Shown here: positions 55,190 through 64,000 of the stretch, piece after piece
Numbering within the stretch: position 1 is the stretch's first letter
Layout of the letters: the number at the start of each line of letters is the position of its first letter
Assembly: GCA_965203545.1 (NCBI GenBank)
Contig: OZ241899.1
Location: 1,358,291 to 1,422,290, forward strand
Direction of reading: 5' to 3'
Length of the DNA stretch: 64,000 nucleotides
DNA from: Tepidiformaceae bacterium
Lineage (GTDB): Bacteria > Chloroflexota > Dehalococcoidia > Tepidiformales > Tepidiformaceae
Position numbers and translations under genes: made by a program
The notes under the pieces: model-generated
What the model was told of the DNA's origin: nothing
Seen by the model: only the letters and a program-made list of their open reading frames with translations
Databases searched by the model: none

Positions 55190-56082
55190 CAGCCGGTCCC
55201 CCCAATGATCTCGCGGGCGATCCGGAGGTCGGCCACACGGCGCTCCACAACGGGGCGGTAACCGGCGTAGACGACGGCGTCGCACTCACGAAGCAACTCG
55301 CGCGCCATGCGCTCCTCCCAGCCGTCGACTCCCGCCTCCGCCATGCGCGTCTCCAGCTCGGCGGCGGTGAGGGACTGAGCCGGGAATTCGTACCGCTCCC
55401 CCAGGACGTTGCGGACGGCACCGGAGATGGCGCGATAGGCGCCGGCGGCGTCGGTTTCGAGCAGCGCTTCGGCGGCGGCCAGGACGTCGTCGGCTGGCGG
55501 GGGCTCGGGGGCGACGTCACCCATGTCGACGGGCCGGTTTCGCCACCAGCGGCGGGCGAGCGCGGCGGCAATGGCCGCAATCACGACCGCGACGAACCCG
55601 CCGAGGGCGATGCCGGGCCAGAGCATCACGGACTGCGCTCCATCGATGGGGACGGGCGGCGGTAGGGGGGAGAGTGCCAGCGGCTCGTCGGGAGGGAGGG
55701 TAGAGGGCACCTCCAGGGTGAGGACGGGGAGCGCGGCGGGAGTGGGGCCGGCGTCGGTGGTGACAACAACCGCAGGACGGAACGTCACCGTGCCGGGGGC
55801 GAAGGGCGCCACCAGCACTTCGATGCGGTGCTGCAATCCCGCGTCGATCGCCGTGGCGGATTGCGAGAGAACGCGGATGACGCGGACATCGCCCCATGAT
55901 TCCCCGGCAGGATCCACTTCGACGACCGCGTCGGCAGGCGCCTCGAGCGTGATCGTTACGACAACTTGCTCGCCGATCGCGGCAAAGGTCCGCGAGACGG
56001 TTGCCTCGGGATCCTGCGCGGAGGCGAGGGCGGGAACCGCCAGCACGGCGGCGAGGGCACAGAGGAGGGCGAGGCGTCTCAC
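55189..56082 (-). CDS. Secreted/TM protein with a BatD-like N-terminal part and a DUF4381-like C-terminal part
   Basis: Signal peptide (ALASAQ), a beta-rich ectodomain, a single TM (IALGGFVAVVIAAIAAAL) followed by RRWWR, then a cytoplasmic helical tail. It occupies the usual position in MoxR-Bat operons. Confidence 0.5.
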   Translation of the reverse strand: MRRLALLCALAAVLAVPALASAQDPEATVSRTFAAIGEQVVVTITLEAPADAVVEVDPAGESWGDVRVIRVLSQSATAIDAGLQHRIEVLVAPFAPGTVTFRPAVVVTTDAGPTPAALPVLTLEVPSTLPPDEPLALSPLPPPVPIDGAQSVMLWPGIALGGFVAVVIAAIAAALARRWWRNRPVDMGDVAPEPPPADDVLAAAEALLETDAAGAYRAISGAVRNVLGERYEFPAQSLTAAELETRMAEAGVDGWEERMARELLRECDAVVYAGYRPVVERRVADLRIAREIIGGTG

Positions 56083-57035
56083 GCGACGGCCCGGGCGCGG
56101 CGCCGGAAGAAGGCGAGGAGCGAACGCACGTAGTCCTCGCCCGTGACGATGGTTATCTCGTCGATCCCGAGCTCGCCGAAGAGGCGCTCCCGCTCGGCAT
56201 CGATCTCGCGGACGCGGGAGGCGTAGGCCTCGCGCACGGCCTCGTCGTCGCTGTCGACCTCGTAGGCGGGACCGCCCTCTGCATCCTCGAGCCGCACGAT
56301 TCCGGCGGCGGGAAGCTGCTCGTCGAGGGGCTCACGGATGCGAACGGCGATGATGTCGAAGCGGCGGGCGGCCGCGCGGAGGGCGCGCGCGTACCCCTCG
56401 GTGAGGAAGTCAGAGATGATGAACAGGGTGGCGCGACGGCGCTGAATGCCCGTCAGGTACTCGAGGGCGGCGCCGAGGTCGGTGCCTTTGGTCTCGGGCC
56501 GGGCTGAGAGGACCTCACGCACGAGGCGCAGCACATGGATGCTGCCGCCGGCGGGCCGCAGGTAGCGCTCGGGAGCGCTGGCGAAGAGCAGGAGCCCGGC
56601 GCGATCGTTGTTGCGGATGGCGGCGAGGGCAAAGACGGCGCAGAGCTCGGCCGCGAGGCTGGCCTTGGAGCGCTCGGCAGCGCCCGCGGTCTGCGAAGCG
56701 CTCACATCTACTGCAAAGAGCACGGTCAGGTCGCGGTCCTCGCGGTAGCGGCGGACGAGAGGCTGGCCCGTGCGGGCGTACGACTTCCAGTCGATGGAGC
56801 GCACGTCATCGCCAACGACGTAGGGGCGGAGCTCGTCGAACTCGATGCCGCGGCCGCGGAAGACCGCGTGGTACTCGCCGAGGAAGAGGTCGTCGACGAG
56901 GCGGCGGGCGCGTATCTCGATGGCGCGGACGCGACGCAGGAGCTCGGTCGCGCCATCGATCGAGGCCGCTTCGTCGGACGCGGGCCGGGAGGGGTCGCGC
57001 CGGGGGCGCCAGAGCCGCGGCCACCACGCGCGCAT
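56079..57035 (-). CDS. DUF58 domain protein
   Basis: AVFRGRGIEFDELRPYVVGDDVRSIDWK is the family signature. Confidence 0.85.
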   Translation of the reverse strand: MRAWWPRLWRPRRDPSRPASDEAASIDGATELLRRVRAIEIRARRLVDDLFLGEYHAVFRGRGIEFDELRPYVVGDDVRSIDWKSYARTGQPLVRRYREDRDLTVLFAVDVSASQTAGAAERSKASLAAELCAVFALAAIRNNDRAGLLLFASAPERYLRPAGGSIHVLRLVREVLSARPETKGTDLGAALEYLTGIQRRRATLFIISDFLTEGYARALRAAARRFDIIAVRIREPLDEQLPAAGIVRLEDAEGGPAYEVDSDDEAVREAYASRVREIDAERERLFGELGIDEITIVTGEDYVRSLLAFFRRRARAVA

Positions 57036-57043
57036 GGCCGCCC

Positions 57044-58042
<999 letters not shown>

Positions 58043-60009: not shown

Positions 60010-60465
60010 ATGCTGATCCGCGTGACGCCGGAACGGCTCGACCCAGAGGAAGCGATCGCAGCGGTGCGCCGCGACGAGGCCGGGGCGGTCGACGTGTTCC
60101 TGGGCGTGGTTCGCAACACCAACAAGGGCAGGGCAGTCGACCACCTCGTGTACGACGCCTATCCCTCGATGGCGGAGAAGACGATGCGGGAGCTGGCAGT
60201 GGAGGCGGTGGAGCGCTTCGACCTGACGGACAGCGCCGTGCTGCACCGCACGGGGCGGCTGGAGATCGGCGAGACGAGCCTGCTGGTGGCGGTGAGCGCG
60301 GGCCACCGGGCGGCCACGTTCGAGGCGGGACACTGGCTCGTGAATGAGGTGAAGCGACGGGTGCCCGTGTGGAAGAAGGAAGTGTGGGCGGACGGCGAGG
60401 AGTGGATCGAGGGGCCGGAGTCACTGGGAATGGAGCGCGCGCCCGCCACGATGCGCGGCTCGTGA
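60010..60465 (+). CDS. moaE: Molybdopterin synthase catalytic subunit
   Basis: GAVDVFLGVVRN, SLLVAVSAGHR and PVWKKE. Confidence 0.9.
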   Translation: MLIRVTPERLDPEEAIAAVRRDEAGAVDVFLGVVRNTNKGRAVDHLVYDAYPSMAEKTMRELAVEAVERFDLTDSAVLHRTGRLEIGETSLLVAVSAGHRAATFEAGHWLVNEVKRRVPVWKKEVWADGEEWIEGPESLGMERAPATMRGS

Positions 60466-60995
60466 CGAGCCACCCGCACGCGACCGGCCGCTTCTGCATG
60501 CAGTGCGGAAGCGGGCTGACGGAACGCGTCCCGCCGGGCGACACGATGGCGCGGCTGGTCTGCGAGGCCTGCGGGTTCGTGCACTACCTGAACCCTCGGC
60601 CGGTGGCGGGCACCATTCCGGTGCGCGAGGACGGCAGCCTGCTGCTGGTGCGGCGCGCGATCGAGCCGCGGCTGGGATCCTGGGTGTTCCCGGGCGGCTT
60701 CATGGACGTGGGGGAGACGGCGGAGGAGGCGGCCGCGCGGGAGACGCGCGAGGAGGCGAACCTGGAGGTCGACGAACTGTCGCTTCTGGGGGTGTACACG
60801 CGCACGCACGCGGGGGTCGTCGTGATCGTGTACGAGGCGCGGGCGCTGGGCGAGGGGTCGGCGGGATCGGAGACGAGCGAGATCGGGTGGTTCGCGCCGG
60901 ACGCCATCCCCTGGGACGAGCTCGCCTTCGACACGACGCACTGGGCGCTTGGGGCGTGGCTGGAGCGGCGGGGTCTGGGGCGGCTGGCGGGCTAA
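60462..60995 (+). CDS. NUDIX hydrolase with an N-terminal zinc ribbon
   Basis: FCMQCG...CEACGF, and the Nudix box GGFMDVGETAEEAAARETREEANL. The GTG at 60462 overlaps the moaE stop (GTGA). Confidence 0.85.
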   Translation: MTSHPHATGRFCMQCGSGLTERVPPGDTMARLVCEACGFVHYLNPRPVAGTIPVREDGSLLLVRRAIEPRLGSWVFPGGFMDVGETAEEAAARETREEANLEVDELSLLGVYTRTHAGVVVIVYEARALGEGSAGSETSEIGWFAPDAIPWDELAFDTTHWALGAWLERRGLGRLAG

Positions 60996-62347
60996 CGGCG
61001 GCGGCCCCCGCCGGAGCGGGGCGGGAGGTTGTAGGGCCGGGCGAGGATGGCGACGTGCTGGCTCAGCTTCGGGTCGAGCGCGCGCACGGCGACGCGGGGG
61101 TGGGCCTCGCGCAGCTCGTCGAGGGAGAGGGCGGCTGTGATGATGGTGGGGAGGCGCGAGGAGGCGCGGTAGTTCGCAATCTGGAAGAGCTTCTCGACCG
61201 CCCAGGACGAGCTGGTGTGGGGGCCGAGGTCGTCGAGGATGAGGAGTCCGGCGTTGCGGATGCTCTCGAACAGCTCGTCATAGCCGGGGTCTCCGCGGTT
61301 CGGGGCGAAGGAAGCTCGGAGGTGGTCGAGGAGGTCAGGGACGACGGCGAAAAAGGCGTCGCCGCCGTTACGGAGGACGGCATTCGCGACGGCCGCAGCG
61401 AGGTGCGTCTTGCCGCAGCCGCTCTCGCCGAGGATGAGCATCCAGCCCTCGGGGGCATCGGCGAAACGGTGGGCGCTCTCCCAGGCGGTTTGGAGGGACT
61501 CGTTCTCCTGGGAGGCGTAGTTGGGGAAGCGGGTGTGGAAGTTGTGGAAGCCGAAGTCCTCGAGGCGCTCGCGCGTCATGCCGCCGACCTGGCGGTAGCG
61601 GGCAAGGGGAGCGCCTCCTTCGAGGTCGAGGACGGCGCCGGAGGCGAGCCGCCGGGAGAGACGTTCCTCGAGGGAGTCGGTGAGGGAGTGGCAGGTGCAG
61701 ACGGTGGGGAGGGCGGCGTTGTAGCGCGCGTTCACGAGCTGGAAGAGCTTCTCGCGCGCCCACTCGCTGGAGGCGGCGGCGTCGATGTCGTCGAGGATGA
61801 GGAGCGGGGCGCTGCGGACCTGCTCGAAGAGCGTGTCGAAGCCGGGCTCGCCCTCGGTGGGCTCGTAGGAAGCGCGAAGGCCGTCCAGGAGATCGGGTGT
61901 GAACATGAAGAGGACGGGCTCGCCGCGGGCGATGCGTTCGTTGGCGATGGCGGCAGCGAGGTGGGTCTTGCCGGACCCACTGGGGCCCTTCAGGACAAGC
62001 CAGCCGTCGGGCGCGTCGGCGTAGGCGCGGACCTGGGCGGCGGCGGGAGTGGCCTCGCCGCGGAGGGCTTCGAAGGTGAAGCGGGTGAGGGCGCCGAGGT
62101 TGCTGATGCGTTCGAGCCGGGAGCGGCGCACCTCGCCGGTCTCGTCGAGGATGCAGGTACAGGGTTCCGCGCGGCCGAAGCGCGGATCTTCAAGCTCGCG
62201 CGAGCGGCGGACGAAGCCGGCCCCGCCGCAGCGGGGACATGCGTCCTCGTCCGGCTCGTCAGCTGGGGCGGGAGGCGGATCCTGCGGCTCCGTCACCGGC
62301 GTATCGGCGGCGGCGGAGCTCGACAGAATCTCGTCCAGTCGCTTCAT
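60992..62347 (-). CDS. DnaC/DnaI-like helicase-loader protein with an N-terminal Cys4 module and two tandem AAA+ modules
   Basis: Start MKRLDEIL (ATG at 62347). Zinc motif CPRCGG...CTC. Module 1 has GPSGSGKTHLAAAIAN (about 61987-61964) and LLILDDID. Module 2 has GESGCGKTHLAAAVAN (about 61429-61406) and LLILDDLG. Confidence 0.75.
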   Translation of the reverse strand: MKRLDEILSSSAAADTPVTEPQDPPPAPADEPDEDACPRCGGAGFVRRSRELEDPRFGRAEPCTCILDETGEVRRSRLERISNLGALTRFTFEALRGEATPAAAQVRAYADAPDGWLVLKGPSGSGKTHLAAAIANERIARGEPVLFMFTPDLLDGLRASYEPTEGEPGFDTLFEQVRSAPLLILDDIDAAASSEWAREKLFQLVNARYNAALPTVCTCHSLTDSLEERLSRRLASGAVLDLEGGAPLARYRQVGGMTRERLEDFGFHNFHTRFPNYASQENESLQTAWESAHRFADAPEGWMLILGESGCGKTHLAAAVANAVLRNGGDAFFAVVPDLLDHLRASFAPNRGDPGYDELFESIRNAGLLILDDLGPHTSSSWAVEKLFQIANYRASSRLPTIITAALSLDELREAHPRVAVRALDPKLSQHVAILARPYNLPPRSGGGRRR

Positions 62348-62978
62348 GGTGCTGGTTCCCCTCGGACCAGTTTTGGAGCATGCGCTCGATGTATTTCCAG
62401 TTGCGGACGTTGCGCTCGGCCGCCTCGCGGAAGGCGGACTCGACCAGGTGCTGCGGGTACTGCTCGGCGGCGACGAGGAGGCGTTCGGCGACCAGCGGTG
62501 TAATCGTGCCGACGTGCTCCTCGTACAGGTGGAAGATGTTGGGCCGTCGGGCAGGCTGGGGCTCGTAGGCGATGGCGCCGGGGCGAAGTTCGAGGTCGCC
62601 GCCCCGGGCGCGGGCCACGGCACGGCGGGAGGCGGGGTTGTTCACGAAGTAGACGGTCTCCTGGCGGCCGCTGCCGGCGAGGTCGAGGGCGAGCAGGGCG
62701 CCCAGCTCGACGCAGGCTGCGAGCCCTCGTTCGAGGGATTCGCGGCCGTCGGAGAGCGCTTCGAAGGTCGAGGCGGCATCGGGCAAGGCCCAGACCTGGT
62801 CGGCGGTGACGAAGCGGGCATCGCCCTGTTGCTCCTGGACGAGGCGGGCAACCCAGAGGAAGGCGAGCAGGTCGCCGGGTTCGCGCATGGCAGGCAACAC
62901 CGCCGAGAAGAAGGTGTTCGGGACGGCGGTGGCCTTGCCGATACCTGGAAAGCCCTCGAAGGAGGCGCCATCGCTCAC
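62259..62978 (-). CDS. DnaD-domain (replication initiation/helicase-loading accessory) protein
   Basis: The C-terminal NVRNWKYIERMLQNW is typical of the DnaD/DnaB_2 domain. Its GTG start overlaps the dnaB stop (GTGA), and its 3' end overlaps the loader gene by 89 nt. Confidence 0.6.
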   Translation of the reverse strand: MSDGASFEGFPGIGKATAVPNTFFSAVLPAMREPGDLLAFLWVARLVQEQQGDARFVTADQVWALPDAASTFEALSDGRESLERGLAACVELGALLALDLAGSGRQETVYFVNNPASRRAVARARGGDLELRPGAIAYEPQPARRPNIFHLYEEHVGTITPLVAERLLVAAEQYPQHLVESAFREAAERNVRNWKYIERMLQNWSEGNQHHEATGRDSVELRRRRYAGDGAAGSASRPS

Positions 62979-64000
62979 TGGTCGATCCCTTCGGGCGGGA
63001 GGTCCTCATCCTCCGACTGGAGGACCCAGTCCTCGAACTTGGCGAGTCGCTGGCGGAAGCGAAGGTCGACCGTTCCGGTGGGGCCGTTGCGGTGCTTGGC
63101 GACGATCACCTGGGCGACGCCCTGGGGGTAGGCGGTCTCGGGCATCTCCGGGTGCTCCGCCATCCACTGCTCGCGGGTGGTGTAGAGCTCCTCGCGGCTG
63201 AGGAAGATGACCACGTCGGCATCCTGCTCGATGGAGCCCGAGTCGCGGAGGTCGGAGAGCATGGGGATGCGGGGATGGCGCTGCTCGATGGCGCGCGAGA
63301 GCTGGGCGAGGGCGATCACGGGGACGTTCAGCTCGCGGGCGAGGCCCTTGAGGGTACGCGAGATGTAGCTGATCTCCTGGACGCGGTTCTCGCGGCCGTT
63401 CCAGCTCGCGTCGGACTGCATGAGCTGGAGGTAGTCGACGACGACGAGGTCGACACCGTGAGAGCTGGCGAGGCGACGAACCTTGGAGCGCAACTCGGCG
63501 ACGGTGAGGGTCGGGGAGTCGTCGAACCAGATGTTGGCGCCGGCGAGCTCGCCGGTGGCGCGGATGATGCGGCGCTCCTCCAGCTCGGTCTGGCCGCCGA
63601 GGCGGAGGCGCGTGCTGTCGACGCCTGACTCGGCCGCGAGGAGACGAACGGCGAGCTGCTCAGCCGACATCTCGAGGGAGAAGAAAGCGACGTTGGCGCC
63701 CTGGTTGATGGCGGCGTTACGGGCGATTCCGAGGGCGAAGGACGACTTTCCGACGCTGGGGCGGGCTCCCACGATGACGAGGTCCTCGCGCTTGAGGCCG
63801 CCGAGCAGGTGGTCGAGGTCGCTGAAACCAGCCTCGACGGCGGCGAGCTCGCGGCGTTCGGCGGCCTCGACGTCCTCGTCGAGGTAGGCCTGGAGGATCT
63901 GGCCGATGTGGACAAAGTCGCGGAAGTTCTCGCCGCCGCGCAGGCGCTGAAGCAGCTCCTCGGAGCGGGAGAAGACGGACTCGATGTCGGCGGGCGCCTC
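62975..64000 (-). CDS. dnaB: Replicative DNA helicase DnaB (C-terminal RecA-like domain; 5' part lies beyond the window)
   Basis: GFSDLDHLLGGLKREDLVIVGARPSVGKSSFAL (Walker A), VVVDYLQLM, ALAQLSR, SDLRDSGSIEQDADVV and AKHRNGPTG. The frame stays open to the right edge. Confidence 0.9.
   Translation of the reverse strand, partial: EAPADIESVFSRSEELLQRLRGGENFRDFVHIGQILQAYLDEDVEAAERRELAAVEAGFSDLDHLLGGLKREDLVIVGARPSVGKSSFALGIARNAAINQGANVAFFSLEMSAEQLAVRLLAAESGVDSTRLRLGGQTELEERRIIRATGELAGANIWFDDSPTLTVAELRSKVRRLASSHGVDLVVVDYLQLMQSDASWNGRENRVQEISYISRTLKGLARELNVPVIALAQLSRAIEQRHPRIPMLSDLRDSGSIEQDADVVIFLSREELYTTREQWMAEHPEMPETAYPQGVAQVIVAKHRNGPTGTVDLRFRQRLAKFEDWVLQSEDEDLPPEGIDQ

Follow-up and report, generated by a model that had tools for sequence, protein, structure and literature searches.

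How many ATPase modules can a single chain of a bacterial helicase loader carry, and are they all equal? What is understood of bacterial helicase loading comes from loaders such as DnaC and DnaI, each chain of which combines a single AAA+ module with a single helicase-binding domain. The question is raised by a gene at positions 60992..62347 (minus strand) of the window analysed here, a 64,000-nucleotide stretch of the genome of a Tepidiformaceae bacterium (Chloroflexota; Dehalococcoidia; assembly GCA_965203545.1, contig OZ241899.1). An earlier reading, made from the letters alone (hereafter the sequence-only reading), had proposed that its product, a protein of 451 residues, holds two complete AAA+ modules of the DnaC/DnaI type behind an N-terminal Cys4 motif. 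We found that the two-module loader is real and is conserved across Chloroflexota beside dnaB, the gene of the replicative helicase. In our judgement the gene probably encodes a chromosomal DnaC/DnaI-type loader in which the module has been duplicated within the chain, behind one zinc ribbon and with unequal ATP sites.

The open reading frame (ORF) runs on the minus strand from an ATG at 62347 to a TAG at 60994-60992. When the protein is aligned with itself by BLASTP, residues 70-228 match residues 254-414 with 46% identity (E 2e-39), a similarity that far exceeds chance and that marks out AAA+ module 1 (residues 70-254; 61586..62140, minus strand) and AAA+ module 2 (residues 257-443; 61019..61579, minus strand). 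The Pfam families IstB_IS21 and Bac_DnaA each match the protein twice, the NCBIfam models for PRK08116, IstB, DnaI, DnaC and DnaA each find two stretches of it, and its top sequence relatives in the PDB are Aquifex and E. coli DnaC and Geobacillus/Bacillus DnaI. The proposal of two such modules in one chain is thus borne out, and all of the motifs quoted for it are present: CPRCGG and CTC near the N-terminus, TRFTFEAL, GPSGSGKTHLAAAIAN, DLLDGLRAS, LLILDDID and EKLFQLVNARY in module 1, and FGFHNF, GESGCGKTHLAAAVAN, DLLDHLRAS, LLILDDLG and EKLFQIANYR in module 2. One detail needs correcting, as CPRCGG and CTC are separated by 20 residues and not by the 18 originally given. The duplicated unit begins downstream of the Cys4 ribbon, so that one ribbon serves two ATPase modules, and each module ends immediately after sensor II, with the full lid absent. 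An AlphaFold2 model built from 46 homologues has a mean predicted local distance difference test score (pLDDT) of 77.7 and a predicted template modelling score (pTM) of 0.56, with local values of ~80-96 across the AAA+ modules (~80-93 in module 1 and ~85-96 in module 2) and poor values at residues 1-90. Read on the plus strand, 60992-62347 also lacks stops, but the translation is rich in Gly, Ala and Glu and contains none of the quoted motifs, and it was rejected.

An ORF of this kind might also result if two adjacent paralogous loader genes had been joined through a mistake in sequencing or assembly, for instance a frameshift or an overlooked stop codon; the sequence-only reading had named this as an outcome that would overturn it, and the window by itself cannot dismiss such a fusion. 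A scan that covered a single genome from each GTDB species gave 80 loci. Both modules lie in a single uninterrupted frame, open across the junction, in all of them (80/80), and more than 15 of these loci are closed megabase-scale chromosomes from different projects. The closest locus, on the Tepidiformaceae chromosome OZ220739.1 from a metagenome-assembled genome (MAG), is 96% identical, and tandem orthologues at greater distance (37-49% identity) belong to MAGs with the labels Anaerolineae, Anaerolineales, Ardenticatenia/Ardenticatenales, 'Chloroflexia' or Chloroflexota. In a word-indexed protein search the best 120 matches were all 346-474 residues long, with query coverage exceeding one module, and went by the names 'ATP-binding protein' or 'DNA replication protein DnaC', some of them from Tepidiforma sp.; the assembly index gave no record for the exact window protein. 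An exhaustive search of 50%-identity representatives returned 488 clusters at E<=1e-30, of which the best 150 are mostly two-module proteins of 420-490 residues. The homologue search that had been proposed earlier places the tandem form in Dehalococcoidia, Anaerolineae and Ardenticatenia. A few metagenomic relatives do look artefactual, namely two three-module-like proteins (P0124, 792 residues; P0123, 564 residues) with near-identical first two modules and repeated or frameshift-like C-terminal tails, which are either very recent duplications or repeat assembly artefacts. For the family as a whole, however, the uninterrupted frames, the closed chromosomes, the lengths of the best cluster representatives, a conserved inter-module junction (YR-x12-18-TFxxF) and purifying selection on both modules (see below) contradict an artefact, and this explanation is effectively refuted, with next to no probability left to it. 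We also considered an internal start at Met257, which would release module 2 as a free protein, and found it unsupported, the GGM junction at that point being conserved in Dehalococcoidia-type proteins only and not in those of the Anaerolineae type.

To compare the two modules residue by residue, we used E. coli DnaC as the reference and measured conservation in 76 orthologues and, separately, in 110 closer relatives. The functional residues of DnaC include K112, E170, N203, R216 (the coupler), R220 (the arginine finger) and R237, together with a tetrad that binds single-stranded DNA (ssDNA), K143/F146/S177/Y179 (PMC8213410); its sequence was checked against these published residue numbers and against the alignment to 6qel. 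Both modules of the window protein hold equivalents of K112, D169, the whole tetrad, R216 and R220. On the minus strand, the module 1 Walker A motif GPSGSGKT (61964..61987) keeps its Lys (K127) in 72/76 orthologues and in 110/110 closer relatives and its Thr (T128) in 76/76, while the Walker B motif LLILDD (61787..61804) keeps both D186 and D187 in 76/76, and box VII, RLSRR (61649..61663), keeps the finger R233 in 76/76 and the coupler R229 in 69/76. Module 2, on the same strand, has the Walker A motif GESGCGKT (61406..61429; K313 and T314 in 76/76), the Walker B motif LLILDD (61229..61246; D372 in 76/76, D373 in 75/76) and box VII, RVAVR (61082..61096), with the coupler R418 in 69/76 and the finger R422 in 71/76, rising to 109/110 and 110/110 among the closer relatives. 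Taken together, the Walker A Lys, the Walker B Asp-Asp, the coupler and the finger are present in 108-110 of the 110 closer relatives in both modules. The register of box VII needed care, since MAFFT placed it four residues off relative to E. coli DnaC; a hidden Markov model (HMM) alignment to 6qel ('privari' against 'ERVMDRM') was used instead, which equates R418 with R216, R422 with R220 and A406 with N203, and the register in module 1 was set by analogy with that of module 2. The equivalents of the ssDNA tetrad read R, Y or F, S or T, and W in both modules, with the R and the W essentially invariant, and the initiator-specific two-helix insert is predicted in each (helices 150-159 and 170-178 in module 1, 336-347 and 358-364 in module 2). 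An AAA+ core, this insert and a coupler four residues before the finger, all marks of a DnaC/DnaI-type loader, were thus found in both modules, and their retention suggests that both should take part in an AAA+ spiral like that of DnaC, in contact with DnaB and ssDNA.

A sensor I Asn combined with a sensor II Arg, which also characterises loaders of this type, was not found in the window protein. The residue aligned with DnaC N203 is His220 in module 1 (61688..61690, minus strand) and, in the HMM alignment to 6qel, Ala406 in module 2 (61130..61132, minus strand), and the residue aligned with DnaC R237 is Arg252 in module 1 (61592..61594, minus strand; R in 73/76 orthologues) and Asn440 in module 2 (61028..61030, minus strand). 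The description of the modules as complete accordingly stands for Walker A, Walker B and the box VII arginines, which are intact in both, and fails for the sensors, as the sensor I Asn is missing from both and the sensor II Arg is kept in module 1 only. With its polar sensor I residue and Arg252, module 1 is likely to be the hydrolytic site. In E. coli DnaC either of the substitutions N203A and R237D abolishes ATPase activity (PMC8213410), for which reason module 2 is probably a site that binds ATP only. Functional asymmetry between the two modules had been guessed at in the sequence-only reading, and the lack of both a polar sensor I residue and a sensor II Arg in module 2 fits that guess. 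Despite these losses module 2 retains its Arg finger and remains under selection: the median ratio of nonsynonymous to synonymous substitution rates (dN/dS) against 13 relatives from the window's clade is 0.12 for module 2, 0.15 for module 1, 0.11 for the zinc ribbon and 0.43 for residues 1-36, values which indicate that both modules are under purifying selection in this clade.

The direction of the asymmetry differs between lineages. Among Anaerolineae-type proteins (n=44), module 1 has the sensor I Asn and the sensor II Arg in every case (44/44 for each), and module 2 has A, S or T at sensor I (N once) and Arg at sensor II in 24/44. In the window's clade (n=25), module 1 carries H (17), Y (5) or another non-Asn residue (3) at sensor I and Arg at sensor II throughout (25/25), and module 2 carries Ala at sensor I in 22/25 and Asn at sensor II in 23/25. 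The other Dehalococcoidia (n=7) have a degenerate module 1, several with 'ARW' replacing the R-x3-R box, and a module 2 that is canonical in 6/7 (TTN, DRIASRL, YR). These patterns indicate that the polarity is reversed in the latter group, and that the catalytic-looking module and the degenerate but retained one have switched places during evolution.

We then considered the two ends of the protein. The Cys4 zinc ribbon (residues 37-65, CPRCGGAG-x18-CTC; 62153..62239, minus strand) has C37, C40 and C63 in 76/76 orthologues and C65 in 71/76; the five exceptions read CPN at that point, and those of them in the N-terminal alignment have an additional upstream Cys pair. Its consensus, CxxCxGxG...[H/D]PxFG...CxC, is followed by a helix (RLxRxSNLG) and then by TFxxF. 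Cysteine conservation and the low dN/dS both indicate that the Cys4 motif is under selection. It had been likened to the N-terminal zinc domain of DnaI, but a ribbon profile built from 22 N-termini matched neither DnaI-N nor the DnaC N-terminal domain in PDB or NCBIfam; its only similarity in PDB, a weak one, was to the CxxCxGxG zinc knuckles of the DnaJ type (E 0.04), and NCBIfam gave none. The likeness to DnaI is therefore one of analogy, and it is from this analogy and from its position that the ribbon is presumed to be the DnaB-binding element. At the other end lies an Arg-rich tail (RSGGGRRR; 60995..61018, minus strand), which is also basic in relatives. Whether the protein has one, two or four modules, a tail rich in Arg or Lys comes after the last AAA+ module in every case and after no internal module; this element may make contact with DNA or with DnaB.

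The genomic context bears on which helicase this loader would serve. Upstream of it, on the minus strand, are a gene for a DnaD-domain protein of 239 residues (62259..62978; PF07261, 9.2e-9; TIGR01446, 2.8e-10) in the middle of the operon and, before that, dnaB (62975..64000), of which only the C-terminal 341 codons are seen in the translation as the gene runs off the end of the window. The stop codon of dnaB and the start of the DnaD-domain gene share the GTGA at 62975-62978. The DnaD-domain ORF and the start of the loader overlap by 89 nucleotides (62259-62347) in different frames, as they also do at locus L001, and this overlap appears real because the loader N-terminus, MKRLDEIL, is conserved. 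The loader had been described as the last gene of a dnaB/DnaD-domain/loader operon, and this order is kept in 76/80 loci, the remaining four being truncated contigs. At L001 the full DnaB (471 residues, with DnaB and DnaB_C domains) has rplI directly upstream, and the rplI-dnaB-DnaD-loader order recurs at L082 and L083. The order rplI-dnaB is the canonical chromosomal arrangement, and the operon of rplI, dnaB, the DnaD-domain gene and the loader is present in Dehalococcoidia, Anaerolineae and Ardenticatenia.

In place of a chromosomal loader, the gene could encode a transposition helper resembling IstB, or belong to the replication module of a prophage or plasmid. IstB, the helper of IS21/IS5376 (5BQ5, 8Q3W), belongs to the same AAA+ initiator clade, and its Pfam family IstB_IS21 (PF01695) is the best match for both modules; in NCBIfam, too, the IstB model (NF038214) gives 129.9 bits, above the scores for DnaI and DnaC. 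Phages carry DnaD-like, DnaC-like and DnaB modules, and the one dna[CI] domestication that Brezellec et al. counted in Chloroflexi is thought to be that of a phage gene (PMC5109545). The IstB score, however, lies below its curated cutoff of 200, and IstB is a single-module protein with IstA as its partner, whereas the window loader sits in a chromosomal rplI-dnaB operon that is syntenic across classes of the phylum. The window flanks consist of housekeeping genes (a Nudix hydrolase, MoaE, MoaD/ThiS, a ComF-like gene, a methyltransferase, MoxR and DUF58), with no transposase, including IstA, or phage gene seen in the flanks inspected. The entries for cultured Chloroflexi consulted in the supplementary table of Brezellec et al. 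give one dna[CI] and no dciA (PMC5109545). The operon context, the flanks and these dna[CI] counts together argue for a chromosomal helicase loader, and we regard a mobile-element function as very unlikely.

How closely, then, does this loader resemble the known ones? With DnaI of B. subtilis and Geobacillus (4M4W, 2W58), which has DnaD and DnaB(Bsu) as co-loaders, it shares the DnaC/I-type AAA+ fold (template modelling (TM) score per module of 0.76 to 2w58 in Foldseek; HMM E 3e-18), the DD-type Walker B, an N-terminal region that probably binds zinc and a gene neighbour with a DnaD domain (PF07261), which in B. subtilis is the dnaB(Bsu)-dnaI pair. It differs in that a DnaI chain carries a single AAA+ module and every module comes with its own helicase-binding domain, in that the ribbon (CxxCxGxG...CxC) has no detectable sequence similarity to DnaI-N, and in that its operon includes the helicase gene, unlike the B. 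subtilis arrangement. The DnaC proteins of E. coli and Aquifex aeolicus (6QEL/6QEM, 3EC2/3ECC) are the best sequence matches in PDB, with a per-module TM score of 0.79 to 3ec2, but DnaC has a single module, a helical helicase-binding domain without zinc, six chains per DnaB6 and Asn203/Arg237 at its sensors, where the corresponding pairs in the window loader are H/R (module 1) and A/N (module 2). In NCBIfam neither the DnaI equivalog model (NF006505, 113.8 bits against a cutoff of 228) nor the DnaC model (NF005931, 96.7 against 357) reaches its cutoff, and the PRK08116 subfamily model alone passes, at 192.8 against 189 and only when the two modules are summed. Two modules of unequal catalytic competence in one chain also recall the type II AAA+ proteins (p97/Cdc48, NSF, Rix7), and p97 and Rix7 lead the Foldseek results by E-value because both modules align in order. 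Those proteins, however, belong to the classic clade and form stacked closed rings with lid domains and pore loops, and a p97/Rix7-like arrangement of the modules was rejected at TM scores of 0.22-0.27 and root-mean-square deviations of 15-23 A, which leaves an analogy and no homology of the duplication.

The number of modules varies within the same operon slot. One orthologue (P0121, 827 residues, L081:6001-8484) has four AAA+ modules behind one ribbon and follows a DnaD-domain gene and, further upstream, a dnaB gene whose 608-residue product contains an intein (PF14890; L081:3433-5259). It lies on a 64-kb contig with housekeeping genes, and its modules are 39-65% identical to one another, which shows that they are not an assembly repeat. 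Modules 1-3 of this protein are canonical, and module 4 is without sensor I; the first three form a clade in 194/200 bootstraps, and their origin by a lineage-specific triplication of module 1 is well supported by the sequences. At the other extreme are single-module loaders of 281 (P0251/P0274) and 278 residues (P0266/P0290) with the same ribbon and basic tail, which fill the rplI-dnaB-DnaD-loader slot in other Chloroflexota (L082:5001-5837, L083:2849-3694) and have Cys or Tyr at sensor I. On whether the two-module form arose by one duplication or several, neighbour-joining trees have internal branches of 0.003-0.03 and bootstrap values of <=30% for either scenario, and the signature columns number 0 module-specific against 3 lineage-specific.

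From these observations we propose the following mechanism. The loader would be co-translated with DnaB and the DnaD-domain protein, as an adaptor, from one overlapping operon, and its single Cys4 ribbon would act as the DnaB-binding element for both modules. Each module would bind ATP through its Walker motifs and ssDNA through its tetrad, and would donate its arginine finger and coupler to the neighbouring site, with module 2 (Ala406, Asn440) binding ATP but hydrolysing it poorly, in a structural or a regulatory capacity. Covalent two-module blocks would make up the AAA+ spiral, with three chains per DnaB hexamer and only three helicase-binding elements. Such a trimer of tandems is plausible by analogy, since DnaI forms a non-covalent trimer of dimers on the Geobacillus helicase (PMC3791466), an arrangement that a tandem chain would make permanent. 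In its widest form, the proposal is that Chloroflexota have replaced the six-chain arrangement with a concatenated loader of two, and sometimes one or four, modules behind one ribbon, with asymmetric ATP sites whose polarity has been swapped between lineages; we hold this tentatively and give it slightly less than an even chance.

Several observations weigh against the mechanism as drawn. The relative orientation of the two modules is not fixed by the AlphaFold2 model, as its pTM indicates, and the ribbon lies in a region of low model confidence and could not be related by sequence to any known helicase-binding domain. The four-module orthologue does not divide evenly into a six-module spiral and so speaks against a strict trimer-of-dimers rule; together with the one-module forms, it shows that the number of modules need not be a divisor of six. 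Sensors I and II are labile across this loader family, with sensor I being Y or C even in single-module orthologues, and sensor loss here may not equal loss of function. Some of the same facts would suit a self-capped loader, in which module 2 occupies the oligomerisation face of module 1 to give a closed pseudo-dimer within one chain; AAA+ self-assembly would be limited or regulated until the pseudo-dimer is opened by DnaB, the DnaD-domain protein or ssDNA, and the stoichiometry would not be three chains per hexamer. A single helicase-binding element per chain, the occurrence of one-, two- and four-module forms in one operon slot and a degenerate module that differs by lineage are all in keeping with such a cap, and the blocking of DnaI self-assembly is a known control point (PMC4887207). 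The presence of the ssDNA tetrad, the finger and the coupler in both modules, however, better suits working members of a DNA-bound spiral, and DnaI assembles on the helicase as a trimer of dimers even without a covalent link; we consider a self-capped loader unlikely, and prefer the spiral built from tandem chains.

Elsewhere in the window, the gene convergent with the loader (60369-60995, plus strand) encodes the Nudix hydrolase, with an N-terminal Nudix zinc ribbon (PF00293, PF14803); it shares 4 nucleotides with the loader stop codon and is kept as a neighbour only in Tepidiformaceae-like loci. On the minus strand at 56079-58042, the MoxR-type AAA+ gene (AAA_3 and lid) lies directly upstream of the DUF58/VWA gene, and this pair is followed by an ORF of 297 residues without a Pfam match. 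MoxR and DUF58 are usually paired. Rfam and tRNA scans found no tRNA, tmRNA or Rfam family at threshold in the whole 64-kb window.

The sequence-only reading had been aware of no characterised tandem loader. In our full-text literature searches for tandem, two-domain and duplicated loaders, and for Chloroflexi loaders, we likewise found no paper describing a loader with more than one module. A resident dna[CI] in Chloroflexi is already known (PMC5109545), but the words 'tandem' and 'duplicat' are absent from that study, and the two-module form is apparently undescribed. One practical consequence concerns annotation, as such proteins are now labelled 'ATP-binding protein' or generically 'DnaC', and these labels can be corrected. 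More broadly, the occurrence of one, two or four modules behind a single ribbon amounts to a natural titration of helicase contacts against ATPase modules. It makes it possible to test how many loader-helicase contacts are needed for ring opening or assembly, whether every ATP site of a loader spiral must turn over, and how subunit asymmetry comes about through duplication, as happened in clamp loaders and ORC. If the concatenated loader is correct, a spiral built from covalent blocks would be a loading stoichiometry undescribed for any bacterial system, and at most three helicase contacts per hexamer would suffice for helicase loading in Chloroflexota.

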